Sequence record: PZ445134.1
Strand: one strand, 5' to 3'
DNA length: 64,000 nucleotides
Source: a phage
Part shown: in pieces, positions 16,690 to 52,017 of the stretch
Layout: each line of letters opens with the position of its first letter
How positions within the stretch are numbered: the first letter of the stretch is position 1
Notes under the pieces: model-generated
Seen by the model: the letters and a program-made list of their open reading frames with translations, nothing else
The model's database searches: none
What the model was told of the DNA's origin: nothing
Translations under genes and position numbers: made by a program

Positions 16690-16726
16690 ATTATTTTCCT
16701 CGGTTATTTTATTATCCAATGAGAGC

Positions 16727-16755
16727 ATTATACTCTGCTCTCAAGAGTTTGTAAA
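16727..16755 (-). promoter_or_regulatory. T4-type early promoter (minus strand)
   Basis: Minus strand TTTACA-17 nt-TATAAT; near-identical copy at 48038..48066. Confidence 0.55.
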
Positions 16756-16758
16756 TCG

Positions 16759-17398: not shown

Positions 17399-17647
17399 TC
17401 AGAGGTTGATTGATACAATGCGTTTGATAAAATTCACTTCACTTACTGAAAGGTCTTTAAGACCGATTGATTCTAAACGCTGAGTAAGCGTCAACATCGG
17501 GATATAGTCCCAATGTGTTTTAGACGTTTGATAAGTACGGACGCCATTAGCAATTTCAACGTTCAAATCAGAAATGGTAATGAATACCAGACGTTCGTTG
17601 TTTACATTAAGAGTTAGAACAACTTTCTTCGAATTCAGACTAATCAT
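17399..17647 (-). CDS. hypothetical protein
   Basis: Start at internal ATG (MISLNSKK) with GAGGAA SD and upstream GTTTACA -35. Confidence 0.4.
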   Translation of the reverse strand: MISLNSKKVVLTLNVNNERLVFITISDLNVEIANGVRTYQTSKTHWDYIPMLTLTQRLESIGLKDLSVSEVNFIKRIVSINL

Positions 17648-17813
17648 TTTGTTTTCCTCTATAGTAGATGGTTTAATCTTAACACATCTATTGAGGATGT
17701 AAACTGTTTTATGAAAATATTTTCGATTTGAGAGGGGCACAAGGAGATAGTGAAGTGAAGATTCCAATTGGATTATATTAGAAATGAGATAAAGAAGACC
17801 AGGCGGCACCTGG

Positions 17814-20518: not shown

Positions 20519-21539
20519 CGCAAATTCATGCCCGTTTATATGAAACAACAAAATTTGGATAGTCCATAGATATGCAACGTTCTTTTATAGTGCTAGGATG
20601 AAAATTTAGCGCTTTAGCTGCTTCTATATAAGACGTATACTTAATACCGTCAACAACCACATATTCAGGAACTTTATGAATAGTAGTCTTAATACTCAAA
20701 ACAAGAGGATGAGTTTCGACTTCACTTTCAGTGCAATTTAAATATTCCGCTGCTTTTTTAAAACTTCTAAAAGTTTTATTTTTAAGCTTTATCGATACTT
20801 GTTTTTTACTTTTTCGACTATTGATATTATTTTGCACATGTTCCTTAGATCTTCTGTTTTTAGCATAATATTCAGCCACAGAAGATTTTATATTGTTTTT
20901 ATGAGATTCGGATAACACTTTACCCTTATGAGCATCTCTTAATTTTTGAATATGTTCTTCAGTATCCGGATGCTTATAAAACTTTTTACCGCCTATGGAT
21001 TTATTTAAACATTTTTTGCTATAAAAATATTTACGTATGACCTCTTCTTCATGTTTTAATGCATCTTTATAACTATCAAATGTTTTTAAAATTATCCATT
21101 TAGTAGGTGTATCAGTTTTTAAGCGTTCATTTATATACTTAGATGACGTTGTGTAAGTTTTCCAGTTTGTGGGCTTGTTTTTAATTGTTCTAAATTTTTT
21201 ATAACCGATATAAATGTCGCCATTAGAAAACTTAACTAAGTATGTAAATGCGTCTTTATCTTTTATTTTAGTACAACGTCTTTTTATCCATTTCATTGTT
21301 TCACCTCGTATTCATAAGATAATCTTATTTATACAAGATGACTGCTGCATGTCGCCATGCAGATTAGACTATATCTTCATCTTTCGATGCCGGCCGTTTC
21401 GAATAGCATTAGCTTCTATTCTACACCGCTACATTCATCACGGTTAGTCGTTAGGCATTTAGTTCAAAAGAACATTTAGCACGGGATTGTCTACTAGAGA
21501 GGTTCCCCGTTTAGACCGGTTTTACATGAGCCTGAATTA
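20519..21539 (-). mobile_element. group I self-splicing intron (T4 sunY/nrdD-type), boundaries approximate
   Basis: Minus-strand core elements in order: P-like UAAACGGGGAACC, Q-like AAUCCCGUGC, R-like AACGACUAA, S-like AAGAUAUAGUCU, and CUGCAUG-GCGA-CAUGCAG hairpin; in-frame UAA at intron start; ORF in 3' part. Confidence 0.7.
20526..21296 (-). CDS. intron-encoded GIY-YIG homing endonuclease (I-TevII-like)
   Basis: 256 aa; N-terminal FTYLVKFSNGDIYIGYKK GIY-YIG motif; NUMOD-like repeats and basic C-terminal DNA-binding region. Confidence 0.8.
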   Translation of the reverse strand: MKWIKRRCTKIKDKDAFTYLVKFSNGDIYIGYKKFRTIKNKPTNWKTYTTSSKYINERLKTDTPTKWIILKTFDSYKDALKHEEEVIRKYFYSKKCLNKSIGGKKFYKHPDTEEHIQKLRDAHKGKVLSESHKNNIKSSVAEYYAKNRRSKEHVQNNINSRKSKKQVSIKLKNKTFRSFKKAAEYLNCTESEVETHPLVLSIKTTIHKVPEYVVVDGIKYTSYIEAAKALNFHPSTIKERCISMDYPNFVVSYKRA

Positions 21540-28206: not shown

Positions 28207-28264
28207 GTTTTACCTCCAGTAGTTGATAGGTCTATAATAACATAACCATAGACCTTGTAAACAA

Positions 28265-29959: not shown

Positions 29960-30063
29960 TTTGTTCTCCTCTTGTTTTGATAGGTCTATAATAACATATC
30001 CTAAAAGTATGTACACTACTTTTTAAAAATATTTTGACCCCCTAAAGGGCCCTAAGGCCCTTA

Positions 30064-32244: not shown

Positions 32245-32408
32245 TTTACCATACTCGTTTCAATAAGATTCACTATGCCGTTTACCATGTTATAAGTAAA
32301 CATCGGATAATTATATTGTACTACAACATAAGCGATAAGCAAAAGTTTCATTTTGTTCTCCATTTGTTTTGGTAGGACTATGTTATAGTAGTCCTACCAA
32401 GACGTAAA

Positions 32409-32666
32409 CTACCGATTATGTTTTAAATGTTGATAAAGTTCTTCAACTTGTTTAGGGTCCAAAACAATTAAGTCATTTTCTTGGCGAAGGTAAATCCATC
32501 CCTTATCCCCAGGACCATTTTTACAAAACATCACCACCGTATCATCATCTTCAGCGCTTTCAGGTAAAAGTTCAAGTACACCGTCTTCAGATTTTCCAGT
32601 ATAATCGTAAAGCATAATGTCCTCACATAATCTCGTTAACATACATTTGCAATTCGGTGTGGGCAT
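32409..32666 (-). CDS. hypothetical protein
   Basis: 85 aa ORF. Confidence 0.45.
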   Translation of the reverse strand: MPTPNCKCMLTRLCEDIMLYDYTGKSEDGVLELLPESAEDDDTVVMFCKNGPGDKGWIYLRQENDLIVLDPKQVEELYQHLKHNR

Positions 32667-32841
32667 CTGCCATCTTTTTCATAGCTCTGTTAATGTCGAT
32701 GTCTCCATCTTCGCAACCATGAGCATTTTCCCAATCGGATACAGCGTTAGCGTACTCTTCAATCAAAAACATTAACTTAGAAATTTTTTCTTTACGTGAC
32801 ATAACGTTCTCCTCTAGTAAGTAAGGTCTACTATAACACAA
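32623..32841 (-). CDS. hypothetical protein
   Basis: 72 aa ORF. Confidence 0.4.
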   Translation of the reverse strand: MCYSRPYLLEENVMSRKEKISKLMFLIEEYANAVSDWENAHGCEDGDIDINRAMKKMADAHTELQMYVNEIM

Positions 32842-32868
32842 CCTGAGGAGAAGTAAACTGCTAAATGC

Positions 32869-32896
32869 AAAAAAGCCCCAACCTTTCGGAAGGGGC
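32869..32896 (-). terminator. rho-independent terminator, copy 1 of 3
   Basis: Minus strand GCCCCUUCC-GAAA-GGUUGGGGC hairpin followed by U5-6. Confidence 0.6.
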
Positions 32897-32901
32897 TTTG
32901 A

Positions 32902-33459
32902 TTAGTTTTTGTAATATCGTAAAGGGTTGATATGGAATGAAAGCATTGCGCGTGGAATAGGACGACTCAAAAGACTCTTAAGTTTCCAACCACAGTAAAC
33001 ACGCAGATAAAATGTAATACCACCAACCTTAAGATAAGGTATAGCAGCGAATAATCCCCATGCCGACTCGTTCCAAACTAAAAGATATCCATGATGTGCC
33101 GGATCAGGAGATCCAGATTTAGTTTCGGCGTTGCCTTTATAGTGCCATTCTGATGAAGCTTCGCGACCTAAAACATGATACGAAAAATTATATGCTTTGT
33201 TGCGCCATAGCCAAGCTACGCGTTGAGCATATTTACCTATAACAGGAATTTTACGTATTTTAGACCAACGTTCAACATGGCCGCGGTCACCATCGATAGG
33301 ATTATCGTAAGTCATCATCCAGTCAAAGCCATAAGGTAGTTTACCGGTTTTTTCACTATGGAATGGAACTACAAATGGTGCTAGAATAATTGCTAAAATC
33401 GCTGCGATCCAATCTATAGGAACAAGAACAACCCAACTTATGTATTTTAAAAATTTCAT
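32902..33459 (-). CDS. membrane protein
   Basis: 185 aa; N-terminal TM segments. Confidence 0.5.
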   Translation of the reverse strand: MKFLKYISWVVLVPIDWIAAILAIILAPFVVPFHSEKTGKLPYGFDWMMTYDNPIDGDRGHVERWSKIRKIPVIGKYAQRVAWLWRNKAYNFSYHVLGREASSEWHYKGNAETKSGSPDPAHHGYLLVWNESAWGLFAAIPYLKVGGITFYLRVYCGWKLKSLLSRPIPRAMLSFHINPLRYYKN

Positions 33460-33492
33460 ATATCCTCTCTTAGTTTACAAGGATATTTATAC

Positions 33493-33519
33493 AAAAAGCC
33501 CCAACCTTTCGGAAGGGGC
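33493..33519 (-). terminator. rho-independent terminator, copy 2 of 3
   Basis: Same 22-nt hairpin as 32875..32896 followed by U-run. Confidence 0.6.
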
Positions 33520-33526
33520 AGGTAAA

Positions 33527-33829
33527 TTAGATAGATTTAGGCTCTAATTTTATTTTCATGAACTCTGCAAATTGTCTGGCAGTTTTTATGCCTTGTTCAT
33601 GACATTCAAATGCATCATCACAGGGGCTATTTTTGTAATGCTTTGCCATATACTTATAAAATTTTTCAGAATTCTCAACATTTTGAATTTCGAACAAAGT
33701 ATATACGTTTTTAATCCCTGATTCCATAAAGTTGTCAAAGTACGGGTCGACATATGCAGTGCCAACTATAGGAGTTGTTGCTGCAAAAAACCCCAGCATC
33801 GCCACGATGGCTATCGCTCTTAAGGCCAT
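33527..33829 (-). CDS. secreted/periplasmic protein
   Basis: 100 aa; signal-peptide-like N-terminus MALRAIAIVAMLGFFAATTPIVGTA. Confidence 0.5.
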   Translation of the reverse strand: MALRAIAIVAMLGFFAATTPIVGTAYVDPYFDNFMESGIKNVYTLFEIQNVENSEKFYKYMAKHYKNSPCDDAFECHEQGIKTARQFAEFMKIKLEPKSI

Positions 33830-37250: not shown

Positions 37251-37278
37251 TTTGATTTCTCCTCTAGTTGACAGGTCT

Positions 37279-37307
37279 ATAGTAACACAACTAGAGGAGA
37301 AGTAAAC
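37279..37307 (-). promoter_or_regulatory. T4-type early promoter inside a 13-bp inverted repeat whose 3' arm contains the regB SD
   Basis: Minus strand GTTTAC-17 nt-TACTAT; flanked by UCUCCUCUAGUUG/CAACUAGAGGAGA inverted repeat. Confidence 0.5.
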
Positions 37308-39220: not shown

Positions 39221-39392
39221 TTTATTCTCTCTAGGTTTGGGCCGTTCCGTGGCACATGTTAGGTCCTTCGCCTCGCTATGTAAACCCATTACCGCACTTG
39301 GGCTCGACCTTATTACAGGTTGGAAAAGGTACATCACTCAGAGGACTCGACGTTCGTAAGGAGAGGTTGCGTTTCCCTTTATTAGGCAAGAA

Positions 39393-39722
39393 TTATACTC
39401 TAGGCTTTTGAGCTTGTTTGGTATTGGATTCCCATGCGGCTTTGGTAATTTTGTTAGCGGCATAACCAAAGGCACTAGATAGAACACCTTTAGAGTTGAA
39501 TACATCCAATCCAATAAGTACGCCGGCTGTGCTAAATTTAGGAGCAAAGTACGCATTAGTTTTAGAAAGAGCTTTTTTCAATTCAGGGTCTTGAACCAAG
39601 CCATCAAAAACGCCTTTACTATTTACTTTATATGTTACTTTGGGATTTTTAGCTTCTTCGATAGCAGCTTTCTGTTCTGCAGATAATGTAACTTCAGTGA
39701 TAAACTCTTGATATGTTTTCAT
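39393..39722 (-). CDS. internal-protein-like protein with capsid-targeting sequence
   Basis: Starts MKTYQEFITE (T4 IP N-terminal targeting/cleavage signal); ORF-track N-terminal extension discarded. Confidence 0.65.
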   Translation of the reverse strand: MKTYQEFITEVTLSAEQKAAIEEAKNPKVTYKVNSKGVFDGLVQDPELKKALSKTNAYFAPKFSTAGVLIGLDVFNSKGVLSSAFGYAANKITKAAWESNTKQAQKPRV

Positions 39723-39834: not shown

Positions 39835-40137
39835 TTATTTACCTTTAATTACTTTAGCTGCTTCGATAGCCGCTTGCTGAAGGTCATCCATAGACATACC
39901 GAATTTAGAAGCAAAGTTATCAATTTTCTTTTCGACAGCATTCAAAGGCTTGGCCTGTTTACCTTCATTAGCGCCAGGAAGAGCGAGAATACGCTCTTTG
40001 TCAATATAAAGGCTTACAAGTTTCTTACGGTCTTTATCGGACAAATCATGAAATGAATGGGCCTTTTTATTTATAGCGGATTCTAATTTACCTGCACTCA
40101 CTCGCGCTTCTGCAATAAATTCTTTATACGTTTTCAT
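39835..40137 (-). CDS. internal-protein-like protein with capsid-targeting sequence
   Basis: Starts MKTYKEFIAEA; 100 aa. Confidence 0.65.
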   Translation of the reverse strand: MKTYKEFIAEARVSAGKLESAINKKAHSFHDLSDKDRKKLVSLYIDKERILALPGANEGKQAKPLNAVEKKIDNFASKFGMSMDDLQQAAIEAAKVIKGK

Positions 40138-40200: not shown

Positions 40201-40461
40201 TTAAGCTTTACCGCCAGAAATAATTCCGAAGTTGTTAAAATCGTATCCAATATCGTCAACATCTACTTTAGGGCTTGCTACAACATAAGCAATTTCACTA
40301 CGTTTTGCATAGGTGTTGATTTCTTTACCATCGCCACCTAAGAAAGAATACCCATTACGTTTTAATGAGCCAAAGTCTTCCGCATCACCAATGAAAGCTT
40401 TAACTTTAAATTTATGACCTTTGGCATCTGCTTCAGCGATAAATTCTTGATACATTTTCAT
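40201..40461 (-). CDS. internal-protein-like protein with capsid-targeting sequence
   Basis: Starts MKMYQEFIAEA; 86 aa. Confidence 0.65.
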   Translation of the reverse strand: MKMYQEFIAEADAKGHKFKVKAFIGDAEDFGSLKRNGYSFLGGDGKEINTYAKRSEIAYVVASPKVDVDDIGYDFNNFGIISGGKA

Positions 40462-40467
40462 TTTTCC

Positions 40468-40881
40468 TTAGTAAATTGATTTACCATAGTATTTGTACCA
40501 AGTAGGACGTTGGGCAATTTTTTCGTCTAAGCGTGCTTGACTTATCGCAATGGACGCTTCGGACGGGACATAATTATTACGAAATTCGGCAGGGATGTCG
40601 GAAATATCCTGGACAGTCGTGTCCTTGATTTTGAAACCACGTTTCAAGCATTCAGCGATTAGCTCGATTTGTCGTAAACGTAAAAATTCGAGTTTGTCGT
40701 AAAAGAATGTTACGTGACCTGTGCCTAAGATAAATGTTGGAGAGATTTTAAAATCCTTTACACGTTTACCGTTTTGAACATGTTTACGGACTGCACCAAA
40801 TACGCGTGGTAATTCACGATACTCAGCCATAAGATGTTGGTCGGTCAGTTCAGAAACAAGTGTTAAATTGATACGAGTCAT
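40468..40881 (-). CDS. denV: endonuclease V (pyrimidine-dimer DNA glycosylase) DenV
   Basis: [34 protein letters not shown]... near-identical to my recall of T4 DenV; start at internal ATG. Confidence 0.9.
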
Positions 40882-40908
40882 AATTTCCTCCAAGTAGTTG
40901 ATGAATGT

Positions 40909-40938
40909 ATAGTATCAAAGTCCTTGGAGGAAGTAAAC
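40909..40938 (-). promoter_or_regulatory. T4-type early promoter inside inverted repeat (denV)
   Basis: Minus strand GTTTAC-18 nt-TACTAT flanked by UUCCUCCAAG/CUUGGAGGAA inverted repeat; 3' arm is the SD. Confidence 0.5.
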
Positions 40939-40939
40939 A

Positions 40940-41221
40940 CTATTTTTCTGAAGCGCCTGAAATATATTTTTCAAGACGTTGTTTCATTAGCGAGCCGTTC
41001 TTAGCGATTTCTTCCGGTTTATCGCACATACGCAACAAGGCTTCAAGCTTAACGATATCACTGGTGCGCTCAAATTTGCGAGTATCTATCTTACTAGCAA
41101 GTTCAGAAATACGTGCTAATAGACTTTCGGCTTCAACCAAAGCTGCACCTAGCTTAGTTGCAAATGTGTCAGTAGCTTCGTTAAGAATAGATTCTGATAA
41201 AAATTCACTATATGTTTTCAT
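40940..41221 (-). CDS. internal-protein-like protein with capsid-targeting sequence
   Basis: Starts [10 protein letters not shown]; start overlaps lysozyme stop (ATGA). Confidence 0.6.
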
Positions 41222-41706
41222 ATATACGCTTTCCAAGTTCCTGTTTTAAATGTTGAGATTACGCGTTTCGCGCGATTAGGTGTCTGACGATACCATTTAG
41301 ACTTGGCTAGATTTACTGCCGCTTCATCCCAACGTTTCTGTTGAAGCATACGAAGAGAATTAGTAAAACCAGCAACGCCTGCTACACCCATTTGGAAGAC
41401 CATATTGACCAATGCACATCGACGAACTGCATCTAAAGAATCATATACCGGTTTAAGTTTAGCATTACCCAAGATTCCGCGAACGGCTTTATCAACGTCT
41501 TCATTAAATAGCTTTTCAGCCTCATCAAGGGTAATTGTACCGTTGCATTTACGTCCGATCATTCTGTCAAGTTCAGCTTTAGCTACGGCTAAAGACGGGT
41601 TCTTTGTTACTAAATGACCTATGCCAATAGTCCAAAAGCCTTCAGTGTCTTTGTATAAAGCCAGTCTAAGACCTTCGTCATTACGAAGCATTTCAAATAT
41701 ATTCAT
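41218..41706 (-). CDS. e: lysozyme (endolysin) e
   Basis: [32 protein letters not shown]... matches T4 lysozyme; start at internal ATG of track ORF. Confidence 0.95.
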
Positions 41707-41740
41707 AATACCTCCCACGTTTATAGGAGGTATTTATTAC

Positions 41741-42199
41741 TTATAGGATGGTAGTGAGCACCTTATATAATGATTTGCCCATTACGTATTCCCATTGAGA
41801 AGGTTTAATTAAAGCGAATGCATCAAATTCAGGAATCTGTCGTCCGTCTGGGAATGTATGATAGGAATTACAAACACTGTTTCTGAATTGCTCGTGCTCT
41901 ACAGGGATGGTATATAGGAACAGATGAATATTCTTATTGTCTGAGTAACGATGTTCACCTAGGTCTTTCAGGAAGGCAGGGTCATATTGTGTAAACCCAG
42001 TTTCTTCTTCGCATTCACGAATAGCGGCTTTGATAGGAGATTCACCGGGCTCGACACGACCTTTAGGAATATCCCACCGATGAGCTAAAGAACCTTTAGG
42101 ACGAGAACCAGTTACACGCCCCATGAATAATTCTTTATCTTCGGTAAGGAAAATAATACCGGCTGATAGTTCTTTCACTTTATTTTTCTTACTCATCAT
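41741..42199 (-). CDS. nudE: Nudix hydrolase NudE
   Basis: Nudix box GRVEPGESPIKAAIRECEEETG; start at MMSKKNK. Confidence 0.8.
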   Translation of the reverse strand: MMSKKNKVKELSAGIIFLTEDKELFMGRVTGSRPKGSLAHRWDIPKGRVEPGESPIKAAIRECEEETGFTQYDPAFLKDLGEHRYSDNKNIHLFLYTIPVEHEQFRNSVCNSYHTFPDGRQIPEFDAFALIKPSQWEYVMGKSLYKVLTTIL

Positions 42200-43906: not shown

Positions 43907-43934
43907 AATATTCTCCTCATGTTTTAATAGGACT

Positions 43935-43964
43935 ACTATAACATAGTCCTATCATGTTGTAAAC
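43935..43964 (-). promoter_or_regulatory. T4-type early promoter inside inverted repeat
   Basis: Minus strand GTTTACA-18 nt-TATAGT; -10 sits in hairpin AUAGGACUA...UAGUCCUAU. Confidence 0.45.
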
Positions 43965-45213: not shown

Positions 45214-45263
45214 TTAATTTGATAGGACTACTATAACATAGCCCTATCTTGTTGTAAACTGTT

Positions 45264-47996: not shown

Positions 47997-48037
47997 ATTA
48001 TTACCTTTCAATTGGTGGTTTATTATCCAACGAGAGC

Positions 48038-48066
48038 ATTATACTCTGCTCTCAAGAGTTTGTAAA
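48038..48066 (-). promoter_or_regulatory. T4-type early promoter
   Basis: Near-identical to 16727..16755 (TTTACA-17-TATAAT on minus strand). Confidence 0.55.
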
Positions 48067-48294
48067 TTATTTTTTAATCAAATTGACATAAAACTCGGCA
48101 TCTTCCGGGTGCATGCCTTCACAGTATTCTTCAACCATGAACTTCTTAACGGCTTCATAAGGACCACTCAGATTAAGCTCAGTTGTCCAGAACTTGGAAT
48201 CTTGGACTGAATCGATACGAACTTCAGGGTGACGGTTGCGAATAACTTCTTCGGTGTATTCATAATCAACGACATCAATACTAACTGTAGCCAT
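48067..48294 (-). CDS. hypothetical protein
   Basis: 75 aa acidic ORF. Confidence 0.45.
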   Translation of the reverse strand: MATVSIDVVDYEYTEEVIRNRHPEVRIDSVQDSKFWTTELNLSGPYEAVKKFMVEEYCEGMHPEDAEFYVNLIKK

Positions 48295-49213: not shown

Positions 49214-49407
49214 GTTTTTTCTGTATCGGTAGTTGATAGTTGTATAGTACCACGGAAGAACAGGGATGTAAACAGTTTTGTGAAAAAATTTTTAAAAGTT
49301 TTTTTGGGAATTCTAGGGCAAGGAGAGGCAATTAAAGGATAGGATATTGTATTATAAAGGGAAGAAACTAAATGATGCCTAGAGAGGTCCAGAAAGGCCT
49401 AGATACT

Positions 49408-49434
49408 AAAAAGCCCCAACCTTTCGGAAGGGGC
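49408..49434 (-). terminator. rho-independent terminator, copy 3 of 3
   Basis: Same GCCCCUUCC-GAAA-GGUUGGGGC hairpin plus U-run, downstream of tRNA/small-RNA region. Confidence 0.6.
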
Positions 49435-49440
49435 TAAGCC

Positions 49441-50902: not shown

Positions 50903-50971
50903 TTTATTCTCCTCAGTAGTTGATAGGGTAATAGTATCACTACCCTATATAAAAGTAAACGGTTTTATAAA

Positions 50972-51280
50972 CTATTTTATTCCGCGTGATGCAATCGTAT
51001 TCTGCCGTTTAACGCCAGTTTGTTTAAAGTTATGATTGTCGAGTTGATCGGTGCGAGCAACTCCGAATGATGATTTAATCTTAGCTTTAGATCCTTTAGT
51101 TATAGAAATAAACATCTCGGGAGCCCCTTTCTTAAAGTCCGAAGCAATTACTTCAACACCGTTCTTAGCAAGTGACTTCATAATTGCTTCCGCATACTCA
51201 TCATCAAGACCCGCTTGAGTATGAATAACGAATGTCTTTGGTGCAGCCGCTTCATTGATAAATTCTTTAAATGTTTTCAT
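50972..51280 (-). CDS. internal-protein-like protein with capsid-targeting sequence
   Basis: Starts MKTFKEFINEA; 102 aa. Confidence 0.6.
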   Translation of the reverse strand: MKTFKEFINEAAAPKTFVIHTQAGLDDEYAEAIMKSLAKNGVEVIASDFKKGAPEMFISITKGSKAKIKSSFGVARTDQLDNHNFKQTGVKRQNTIASRGIK

Positions 51281-51340: not shown

Positions 51341-51613
51341 TCATTTTAAATAAATTGCGTATTTTTTATAGCCACCAGGCTCGTGTCGAAGACCCCTATC
51401 ATTAGCAAAACGCTCAATGTTGTTAATTTGATTCTGGTCAAGTTCAGAGATGTCAAACACGAAATAGTTACGTTTGTTACCAACTGTTACATAGTCAGTT
51501 AAATCAATACCATATAGGTAATTGATGTCAGCAATCATAGTCTTGACAGCTTTGCTAATTTTTACTTTTTCGTTAAAAGTAGCTTCATTGATAAATTCTT
51601 TAAATGTTTTCAT
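51341..51613 (-). CDS. internal-protein-like protein with capsid-targeting sequence
   Basis: Starts MKTFKEFINEA; 90 aa. Confidence 0.6.
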   Translation of the reverse strand: MKTFKEFINEATFNEKVKISKAVKTMIADINYLYGIDLTDYVTVGNKRNYFVFDISELDQNQINNIERFANDRGLRHEPGGYKKYAIYLK

Positions 51614-51644
51614 TTTATTTTCTTAATTAATTTTGATAGGACCT

Positions 51645-51674
51645 ACTATAACATAGTCCTATCAACATGTAAAC
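51645..51674 (-). promoter_or_regulatory. T4-type early promoter inside inverted repeat
   Basis: Minus strand GTTTAC-18 nt-TATAGT; flanking inverted repeat AUAGGAC/GUCCUAU. Confidence 0.45.
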
Positions 51675-51676
51675 TA

Positions 51677-51940
51677 TTAAATACCTGCTTCGCGCTTAAC
51701 ATAAGCAACATAAGCTTCGATAGCTTTCTTGCTGGTAATTTTTACCTGACCGCGTCCGTTGCCTTCTTTAGAGTTTTTCTTAACAACTACATTACCATCT
51801 TTAACACCCCATACATGGACATAAGTACCGATGTTTCGGTCGTAGAACATTGCATGGTCGTTGTTGTAAGAGAATGATTCGTAGTTCTCTGTCAGAGTAG
51901 AAGATTGAGATTCAGCGATAAATTCTTTATACGTTTTCAT
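51677..51940 (-). CDS. internal-protein-like protein with capsid-targeting sequence
   Basis: Starts MKTYKEFIAES; 87 aa. Confidence 0.6.
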   Translation of the reverse strand: MKTYKEFIAESQSSTLTENYESFSYNNDHAMFYDRNIGTYVHVWGVKDGNVVVKKNSKEGNGRGQVKITSKKAIEAYVAYVKREAGI

Positions 51941-52017
51941 TTTATTTCCTTGAGGTCGTTTATTTGATAGGATGATAGTAACACACCATCATCCTTATGT
52001 AAACTGTTTTGTGAAAA

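Follow-up and report, generated by a model that had tools for sequence, protein, structure and literature searches.

The regB locus and its early promoters

The stretch of phage DNA analysed here, 64,000 nucleotides of sequence record PZ445134.1 (the window), carries on its minus strand a gene for the GGAG-specific endoribonuclease RegB, preceded by an early-type promoter that is embedded in an inverted repeat. This repeat (TTCTCCTCTAGTTG / CAACTAGAGGAGAA, 14 bp) and its counterparts at other promoters of the window are the subject of the present work. Over the 4 kb around the regB site the DNA shares 97.5% identity with Shigella phage phi25-307 and with Escherichia phage RB69, and we assign the phage by sequence to the RB69-like (Mosigvirus) T-even phages. 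According to the RB69 annotation the early minus-strand region spans nrdH to genes 1, 3 and 2; G+C content is ~37% throughout the window. Immediately upstream of regB, the TAA of the preceding gene ends 4 nt ahead of the promoter's -35 element.

A preceding examination of the letters, the sequence-only reading, had noticed that many minus-strand genes follow the motif GTTTAC-17/18 nt-TA(C/T)(A/T)(A/G)T. This claim was borne out: GTTTAC-N17/18-TAYWRT has 18 exact matches, all on the minus strand, which is the coding strand of the early region, against 0.26 expected from dinucleotide shuffles and a shuffle maximum of 2. A relaxed scan returned 31 minus-strand sites, 28 of which were analysed and are designated below by a single coordinate (37307 for regB, 40938 for denV). 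Their consensus reads aaAA..gTTTAC...tgTGtTAt.ATa..cCtAtcaa, with an extended -10 (TG at -15/-14) in 19 of the 28. Ahead of the -35 is a UP-like tract rich in A (A fraction 0.41 versus a strand average of 0.33), with aaAA immediately adjoining the hexamer. T4 early promoters have a UP/-35/TGn/-10 architecture (PMC2988021), 57 early promoters have been predicted in RB69 (PMC1524935), and the T4 regB promoter has been called a typical early promoter (PMC3014915). The window promoters share with the T4 and RB69 set the GTTTAC/TGn/-10 consensus and the C-rich -3 to -1 positions (PMC1524935). Given this match, and their position ahead of genes orthologous to early genes of T4, we conclude that the GTTTAC sites are in all likelihood T4-type early promoters of the sigma-70 class. 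The T4/RB69 early-promoter study differs from the present account in that inverted repeats, hairpins and stem-loops are unmentioned there (PMC1524935).

Transcription starts were placed at the 7th nucleotide after the -10 hexamer, following the T4/RB69 numbering in which the hexamer occupies -12 to -7 (PMC1524935). In about half of the scored promoters the predicted +1 lies 21-22 nt from the AUG and is followed by a conserved leader, AUCAA(A/C)..., implying a standardised and very short 5' untranslated region.

Inverted repeats within the promoters

The sequence-only reading had cited six inverted repeats at these promoters. All six exist within a few bases of the positions given for them, although some ranges were off by a few bases (32385..32415, for instance, leaves out the 3' arm at 32369-32380). 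It had also placed the -10 region inside the repeat, and here the claim stands for about half of the promoters: in some 14 of 28 an inverted repeat (helix of at least 6 bp) joins the spacer to the sequence after the -10, and in the remainder it does not. Folding z-scores were -4.9 for regB, -5.2 for denV and -4.4 for the promoter at 32409, and between -3.3 and -3.5 for those at 43964, 52004, 17704 and 16756; weak values were obtained at 32858 (-0.85) and at 50960 and 28262 (-1.5 to -1.9).

The pairing is specific to each promoter. In a swap test, the spacer of each of the 28 promoters was paired with the half running from the -10 to about +24, its own pairing being compared with every non-cognate pairing. 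The longest Watson-Crick helix averaged 6.14 for cognate and 4.75 for non-cognate combinations, with 0 of 20000 permutations reaching so high a value, and the duplex energies were -11.1 and -7.3 kcal/mol, respectively.

Two classes of hairpin

The hairpins fall into two classes that differ in where the 3' arm ends (Table 1). Most hairpins belong to class A, whose 5' arm is in the spacer and whose 3' arm begins where the -10 ends and runs as far as about +1 to +3; the Shine-Dalgarno (SD) sequence follows 10-14 nt later, outside the repeat. Members include the promoters at 52004, 51674, 50960, 45259, 43964, 32409, 28262, 48067 and 16756. The repeat at 52004 (AGGATGAT / ATCATCCT) lengthens to 12 bp when G·U pairs are counted. 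One class A cassette, that is, a promoter together with its stem-loop, is 49 nt long (ATTTAC...TGAGAGCA..TATAAT..TGCTCTCA) and occurs twice, 31 kb apart and at 98% identity (16708-16756 and 48019-48067), which suggests that it was recently duplicated or transferred.

In class B the 3' arm is the SD itself. The sequence-only reading had reported at least two such cases; we find four among the 28 promoters (37307, 40938, 32858 and 17704). Their 5' arm follows the -35 directly and holds CUCC or CCUC, and every 3' arm carries GGAG or GAGG. The -10 and the predicted start lie in a loop of 17-28 nt, with +1 placed 2-8 nt ahead of the 3' arm. At the DNA level, CTCC and CCTC are 6-8x enriched in the promoter spacers (p=0.002-0.005) and always stand 3-5 nt past the -35. 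The denV repeat (TTCCTCCAAG / CTTGGAGGAA) comprises 10 bp. Counted from its predicted +1, the regB gene's own transcript would have a leader of 22 nt that does not include the 5' arm.

An intrinsic-terminator hairpin (GCCCCTTCCGAAAGGTTGGGGC followed by a T-run) is present in three copies in the window, at 32861-32897, 33484-33520 and 49399-49435; the first of these adjoins the 32858 early promoter on its upstream side.

Table 1. Positions of the regB cassette and of other promoter-embedded hairpins in the window
Feature	Position	Strand	Arms or motif	Remarks
regB coding sequence, GGAG-specific endoribonuclease, 152 aa	36792..37250	-		open reading frame (ORF) directly downstream of promoter and hairpin
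regB hairpin, 3' arm	37257..37270	-	CAACUAGAGGAGAA	includes SD GGAG at 37259-37262, also a RegB cleavage motif
regB predicted transcription start	37272	-		7th nt after -10; 2 nt ahead of 3' arm
regB -10 hexamer	37279..37284	-	TACTAT	in hairpin loop; TGT before it
regB hairpin, 5' arm	37288..37301	-	UUCUCCUCUAGUUG	anti-SD plus extension, directly after -35; expected in read-through RNA only
regB promoter -35 hexamer	37302..37307	-	GTTTAC	
denV early promoter and putative SD-sequestering hairpin	40879..40938	-		-35 40933-40938; -10 40909-40914; AUG 40879-40881
denV hairpin arms	40923-40932 (5'); 40885-40894 (3')	-	UUCCUCCAAG; CUUGGAGGAA	
Promoter of mobD.2a-like gene (59 aa), class B	32800..32858	-	UUCUCCUC (5' arm, 32845-32852); GAGGAGAA (SD, 32807-32814)	predicted pairing; weak case
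Intrinsic terminator just upstream of mobD.2a-like promoter	32868-32898			
Promoter of 82-aa ORF, class B	17645..17704	-	AUCCUCAAUAGAUG (17685-17698); CAUCUACUAUAGAGGA (17655-17670)	imperfect hairpin over SD
Class A	32369..32409	-	TTGGTAGGACTA / TAGTCCTACCAA, 12 bp; arms UUGGUAGGACUA (32389-32400), UAGUCCUACCAA (32369-32380)	arms flank -10; SD outside
Class A, ATAGGAC/GTCCTAT family	43925..43964	-	UGAUAGGACUAU / GUAGUCCUAUUA	12 bp including G·U pairs
Class A, ATAGGAC/GTCCTAT family	51633..51674	-	UUGAUAGGACU / GGUCCUAUCAA	11-12 bp
Class A, upstream of internal-protein gene	51969..52004	-	AGGAUGAUGGUG / UACUAUCAUCCU	
Class A	50923..50960	-	AUAGGGUAGUG / UAUUACCCUAU	
Class A	45221..45259	-	GAUAGGGCUAU / GUAGUCCUAUC	one sense-strand G·U pair
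Class A, upstream of nrdC.8 orthologue	28228..28262	-	AGGUCUAUGGU / AUUAUAGACCU	
Class A cassette	16708..16756	-	UGAGAGCA / UGCUCUCA	
Class A cassette, second copy of 16708..16756	48019..48067	-		

Conservation and covariation of the stems

The same swap test was applied to ten 20-kb stretches around the regB genes of other T4-like phages, T4-type genomes included, and gave p<0.05 in 8 of 10 by helix length and in 9 of 10 by duplex energy. In T4 (AF158101, 52-72 kb), stems that pair with the SD are present at the regB, denV and nrdC.8 promoters, and the mobD.2 and ipII promoters have class A stems of 14-15 bp around the -10; the GenBank record AF158101.6 carries no annotated promoter or stem-loop features in this region. 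The recurrence of the swap-test result in other loci, together with the stems found in T4, leads us to conclude that promoter-embedded stems are general to enterobacterial T-even phages and not peculiar to the window.

The regB cassette was collected from 16 viral contigs, and the lineages compared were T4-type phages, Salmonella phage STML-198, Citrobacter phage CF1, Klebsiella phage KPV15 and Aeromonas phage 44RR2.8t. The hairpin is kept in five lineages (Mosigvirus, Tequatrovirus, Salmonella STML-198, Citrobacter CF1 and Klebsiella KPV15) with arms that vary among them: 5' UUUUCCUCUUGACUG and 3' CAGUUAAGAGGAGAA in T4, with two G·U pairs; 5' UUUCUCCUCUUUAUG and 3' CAUAAAGAGGAGAAA in STML-198; 5' UCUCCUGUAAGU and 3' ACUUACAGGAGA in CF1; and, in KPV15, a two-part stem of 5' UUUCCUU..GGGCCAU and 3' AUGGCCC..AAGGAGA. 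When the pairs are tabulated from GGAG outwards, the SD core is invariant and hence uninformative, and the 7-8 positions immediately 5' of it form pairs in 6-8 sequences, drawing on 2-4 kinds of pair. Both sides of the stem vary, as in C-G, G-C and U-A at -2, A-U and U-A at -4, and U-A, A-U and G-C at -6. For denV there are four distinct SD-sequestering stems in three lineages (this window, T4 and a second T4-type genome, and an STML-198-like phage). RNAalifold, run on a MAFFT alignment of regB cassettes, predicted zero pairs, because the stems shift register between lineages. At nrdC.8 even the class differs, with a class A stem in the window and a class B stem in T4.

The sequence-only reading had argued that arms which differ between copies yet stay complementary point to selection on structure. 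The swap test among the copies and the comparison of orthologues both support this argument, and together they make a strong case for selection on the stem.

Predicted Shine-Dalgarno occlusion

The stems could be structures of DNA or of RNA. Among 39 helices scored without regard to strand, internal mismatches were G·T in 12 instances and A·C in 2 (binomial p=0.0065), and in 34 of 51 strongly folding cassettes the sense strand outfolds the antisense strand (p=0.012), both p-values being optimistic since some helices are related by descent. The excess of G·T over A·C favours a stem that works as sense-strand RNA structure, on read-through transcripts, rather than as DNA structure.

In class B the predicted +1 falls between the arms, so that only read-through RNA should be able to form the hairpin. 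We compared the predicted probability that the SD is unpaired in the promoter-initiated RNA with that in RNA carrying 120 nt of upstream context. This probability drops from 0.39 to 0.00 for regB, from 0.44 to 0.00 for denV, from 0.50 to 0.00 for 32858 and from 0.40 to 0.00 for 17704, and the remaining promoters show mixed changes. The earlier proposal that read-through occludes the SD and that the gene's own transcript leaves it open is therefore backed by geometry and modelled folding for four genes and finds no support as a general rule. In calculated energy the hairpins of regB (-20.7 kcal/mol) and denV (-16.9 kcal/mol) match or surpass that of the lysozyme gene e of this window (-16.0 kcal/mol); the T4 e hairpin cuts lysozyme synthesis ~100-fold (PMC3014915). 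The terminator scan returned no terminator-like site between regB and the upstream promoters at 39285, 39832 and 40197, and read-through RNA is therefore expected at regB.

Relation to known systems

Several T4 genes are controlled by a promoter located within a hairpin. In e, soc, 49 and I-TevI the SD is sequestered on long transcripts and freed on transcripts that begin at the promoter inside the hairpin, and the arrangement of I-TevII/III, segB and Aeh1 mobE is similar (PMC3014915, PMC2988022). The class B hairpins resemble these in having a helix over the SD whose 5' strand lies upstream of the start predicted for the embedded promoter. They differ in that the T4 set uses a gp55 late promoter (TATAAATA), whereas here the promoter is of the sigma-70 early type, regB and denV themselves belonging to the early genes; every known case concerns a late gene (PMC2988022). 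The predicted outcome would accordingly be "immediate-early only" here as opposed to "late only" in the T4 set. We thus regard class B, from its sequence organisation, as an early-promoter form of the T4 late-gene design, distinguished from it by lacking a late promoter. No description of an early-promoter form of the SD-sequestering hairpin was found in the accessible literature, and an earlier account of the regB or denV hairpin may exist.

The window also contains hairpins of the late type. At gene e (AUG ~41706; 41695-41790, minus strand), an SD-sequestering hairpin (AUACCUCCUAUA....GUGGGAGGUAU) has a late-promoter-like TAATAAATA overlapping its 5' arm and provides, within the window itself, a positive control for a promoter placed in a hairpin. 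A ~1 kb insert within nrdD that RB69 does not have holds an ORF of 256 aa (20526-21380, minus strand) with a GIY-YIG-like motif (DIYIGY); the SD of this ORF is in a stable hairpin holding TATAAATA, as in T4 intron and free-standing homing endonuclease genes. We had considered the ORF at 20526-21296 as gene 49 and rejected this, as it is the GIY-YIG-like ORF inserted in nrdD. At the rI-like gene (start 33459; 33448-33540, minus strand), a terminator hairpin is followed by TATAAATA and then by AUCCUU, which pairs with the SD (GAGGAU), another arrangement of late-type SD sequestration.

A second precedent is provided by PeSLs, early-promoter stem-loop cassettes. In the accessible passages of the two reports on them, the stems lie mostly between -35 and -10 or over the -10 and are read as terminators or attenuators and as recombination substrates (PMC2839356, PMC4122927). 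As far as those passages describe them, PeSLs share with the window cassettes an order of upstream stop, A/T-rich tract, early promoter, stem-loop in or over the promoter, SD and ATG; in both, stems vary among copies and cassettes occupy plastic early regions at rearrangement breakpoints. The RB49 stems described there are G/C tracts, whereas those of the window are AU-rich. Overall, the sequences of the window cassettes fit the PeSL description. The word "translation" and phage RB69 are both absent from the PeSL papers (Arbiol et al. 2010; Comeau et al. 2014), and pairing of a stem with the SD was not found discussed in their accessible passages (PMC2839356, PMC4122927).

RegB itself is known to cut the regB SD (GGAG) in T4-related phages including RB69 (PMC3014915), and RNA structure shields GGAG from the enzyme (PMC3014915, PMC1702504). 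The window conforms to this autoregulation in that the SD of regB is GGAG, the sequence cut by RegB, and in that structure would protect it (PMC3014915). It differs in that the known control cleaves an open site, to which the hairpin would add a layer dependent on transcript origin; such a layer is unmentioned in the accessible reviews on RegB.

A model for promoter-embedded stems and its alternatives

Taking together the motifs, the complementarity and its covariation, the strand bias and the geometry observed here, we lean towards a model in which the stem of a PeSL-type promoter cassette acts on read-through RNA and, in class B and most clearly at regB and denV, closes the ribosome-binding site. 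We envisage that transcription starts ~7 nt past the -10, downstream of the 5' arm, so that the gene's own transcript would be unable to form the hairpin and every read-through transcript would be able to do so. For class B genes, read-through RNA would then have a closed ribosome-binding site, with its GGAG hidden from RegB as well, and the short promoter-initiated RNA an open one; their translation would be restricted to the 2-3 minutes during which early promoters fire. On the strength of the modelled structures, regB, denV and the two other class B genes probably yield protein only when transcribed from their own early promoter. For class A, the stem would most likely be a structure between the cistrons of read-through RNA, working as attenuator, insulator or barrier to 3'-exonucleases, and the common sequence of these cassettes may aid their shuffling by recombination.

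Several observations weigh against this model or limit its reach. The title of the sequence-only reading made SD pairing a general rule, which it is not: most hairpins are of class A, whose stems stop around +1 to +3 and keep clear of the SD, so that its occlusion cannot account for the repeats in general. Predicted sequestration, taken as an SD unpaired probability <0.05 among 108 heuristically called genes, is weakly enriched at early-promoter genes (7/21 versus 13/87, Fisher p=0.056), the 13 of 87 (15%) without an early promoter including classical late-promoter cases. Swapping the upstream halves leaves the SD pairing probability undiminished (mean 0.44 cognate, 0.48 non-cognate), since any CUCC tract pairs with any GGAG, and the comparison was discarded as a test of specificity. 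Specificity rests on the stem extensions, and on helix length and energy as well as covariation. Promoter 32858 folds weakly, as its z-score indicates, and the intrinsic terminator ahead of it should already limit read-through. Among orthologues, the Aeromonas phage 44RR2.8t regB has no such hairpin and some regB variants are mismatched in the stem (L027, L028). Because the same cassette is found upstream of different genes and orthologous genes have different cassette types, part of the covariation may reflect whole-cassette replacement by recombination and not stepwise compensation. The +1 positions are deduced from the promoter consensus. Finally, a stem of 10-15 bp could have less effect in vivo owing to S1, to ribosomes loading co-transcriptionally or to RegB acting on nascent RNA, the last of which has been suggested (PMC1702504). 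Disruption of the stem through translational coupling, by ribosomes ending at the upstream stop, was considered and rejected: with the stop situated 12-16 nt ahead of the 5' arm, such ribosomes would reach at most the outermost 1-2 bp.

It is unlikely, though by no means negligible as an explanation, that the cassettes are purely PeSL elements, with stems that attenuate or terminate upstream transcription and supply recombination homology and with SD pairing that is incidental and has no translational role. Stems between or over the -35 and -10 are described for RB49/phi1, PST/T4 and nt-1/KVP40 in the accessible passages on PeSLs, where one RB49 stem lowered downstream lacZ like a strong terminator (PMC2839356, PMC4122927). 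In the window, breakpoints of homology are enriched at the cassettes (9/22 relative to T4, p=5e-4; 6/20 relative to RB69, p=0.014), although the intergenic position of the cassettes may explain part of this or all of it; the T4 alignment stops exactly at the regB -35. That the same cassette stands upstream of different genes, that one is duplicated in the window and that the class changes at nrdC.8 also speak for this explanation, the first two being at most indirect signs of recombination between cassettes (mini-circles). Against it, no hairpin is followed by a U-run, AUCAAAA occurring there instead, and no cassette hairpin coincides with a terminator-like site in the scan, which led us to set aside an intrinsic-terminator reading; the stems are AU-rich and 8-15 bp long. 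Real terminators do lie just upstream of the promoters at 30016 and 32858, as elements separate from the cassette hairpins. Moreover, anti-SD tracts are overrepresented at a constant place in the spacer, and the SD-pairing register of regB and denV is retained in three to five lineages while other parts of the stem change. A role in termination or recombination needs no such register, and its retention counts against a purely PeSL function. A rather less probable account, and one compatible with the model we favour, is that the SD-pairing stems chiefly protect intercistronic GGAG on long polycistronic RNA from RegB, keeping downstream cistrons such as vs.1, vs and tk intact while short promoter-proximal RNAs are still cut. 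RegB cleaves early mRNAs at GGAG within their SDs, secondary structure in the RNA inhibits the enzyme, GGAG lies in stable structures in sixteen RegB-resistant T4 RNAs (PMC3014915, PMC1702504), and the enzyme's cleavage of its own SD extends to RB69 (PMC3014915); in the window, the GGAG or GAGG of every class B 3' arm accords with this. However, most GGAG-type SDs of the window are unsequestered, the resistance of T4 denV RNA has been ascribed to a missing A-rich 3' element, and a structured mutant site was still cut in vivo, less efficiently and possibly on nascent RNA (PMC1702504).

We see very little likelihood that the repeats act at the DNA level, extruding as cruciforms or hairpins when the DNA is supercoiled or binding a dimeric protein and so tuning promoter activity or early shut-off. 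Phage N4 has hairpin promoters, and here the -10 sits in the loop of the repeat. A further point in its favour is that the mechanism by which T4 early promoters are shut off is unknown (PMC3014915, PMC2988021). Yet the sense-strand bias of the mismatches fits RNA and not a two-strand DNA structure, arms that differ between copies argue against a common protein site, and loops of the size seen in class B make poor cruciforms. The notion that the hairpins are functionless, a by-product of the promoter consensus or of chance, is already disfavoured, and we consider it extremely improbable. It would have the spacer TAGG merely complementary to CCTA at -3 to +1, and indeed ta.g in the spacer and cCtAtc around +1 are present in the consensus and form a core common to many class A stems (families D1 and D7). 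Nevertheless, each spacer pairs better with its own downstream sequence than with those of others in the permutation test, the stems of regB, denV, 52004, 16756 and several cases in other phages are unrelated in sequence, and z-scores reach -5.

Implications for early gene expression

The regB early promoter is shut off after 2-3 min, and regB has been described as needing tight control (PMC3014915). If the model favoured here is correct, it would explain how the toxic RNase RegB and other immediate-early products are confined to the first minutes of infection even though their genes stay on long read-through and middle transcripts. It would also tie the choice of RegB targets to transcript origin and give PeSL cassettes a post-transcriptional role besides termination and recombination. 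The question bears on omics studies of T4, in which transcript timing and protein timing are often at odds (PMC9697503). The cassette would moreover represent a compact, portable part of ~60 nt that makes translation dependent on which promoter fired. Its components are individually known, and the advance is to that extent incremental.

More tentatively, and with greater doubt than attaches to the model itself, we speculate that T-even phages possess an "immediate-early only" translational gate, in which a fixed-position anti-SD tract in the spacer of an early promoter shuts the ribosome-binding site, and conceals the RegB target as well, on all transcripts that start elsewhere. Were this so, the protein from regB, denV and some other genes would track their own promoter's burst of 2-3 min instead of the read-through RNA, which persists much longer, and regB would be subject to a third, conserved layer of control that decides which copies of GGAG RegB sees. 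Considered with the late-promoter hairpins, the transcript start deciding translation would become a genome-wide rule in these phages, with class A stems as insulators of the same system.

Gene order and shared coding leaders

Between 39700 and 41250 the gene order is unlike that of T4: denV lies upstream of an ipII-like ORF (39835-40137, with 93% identity to T4 DNA), the reverse of the T4 order, in which ipII precedes denV. Promoter cassettes border the blocks in this interval, consistent with modular shuffling. Finally, a conserved 5' coding leader, MKTYKEFI or MKTFKEFI, an N-terminus of the internal-protein type, is shared by seven genes (39693-39722, 40108-40137, 40432-40461, 41192-41221, 51251-51280, 51584-51613 and 51911-51940), several of which have near-identical promoter cassettes upstream.

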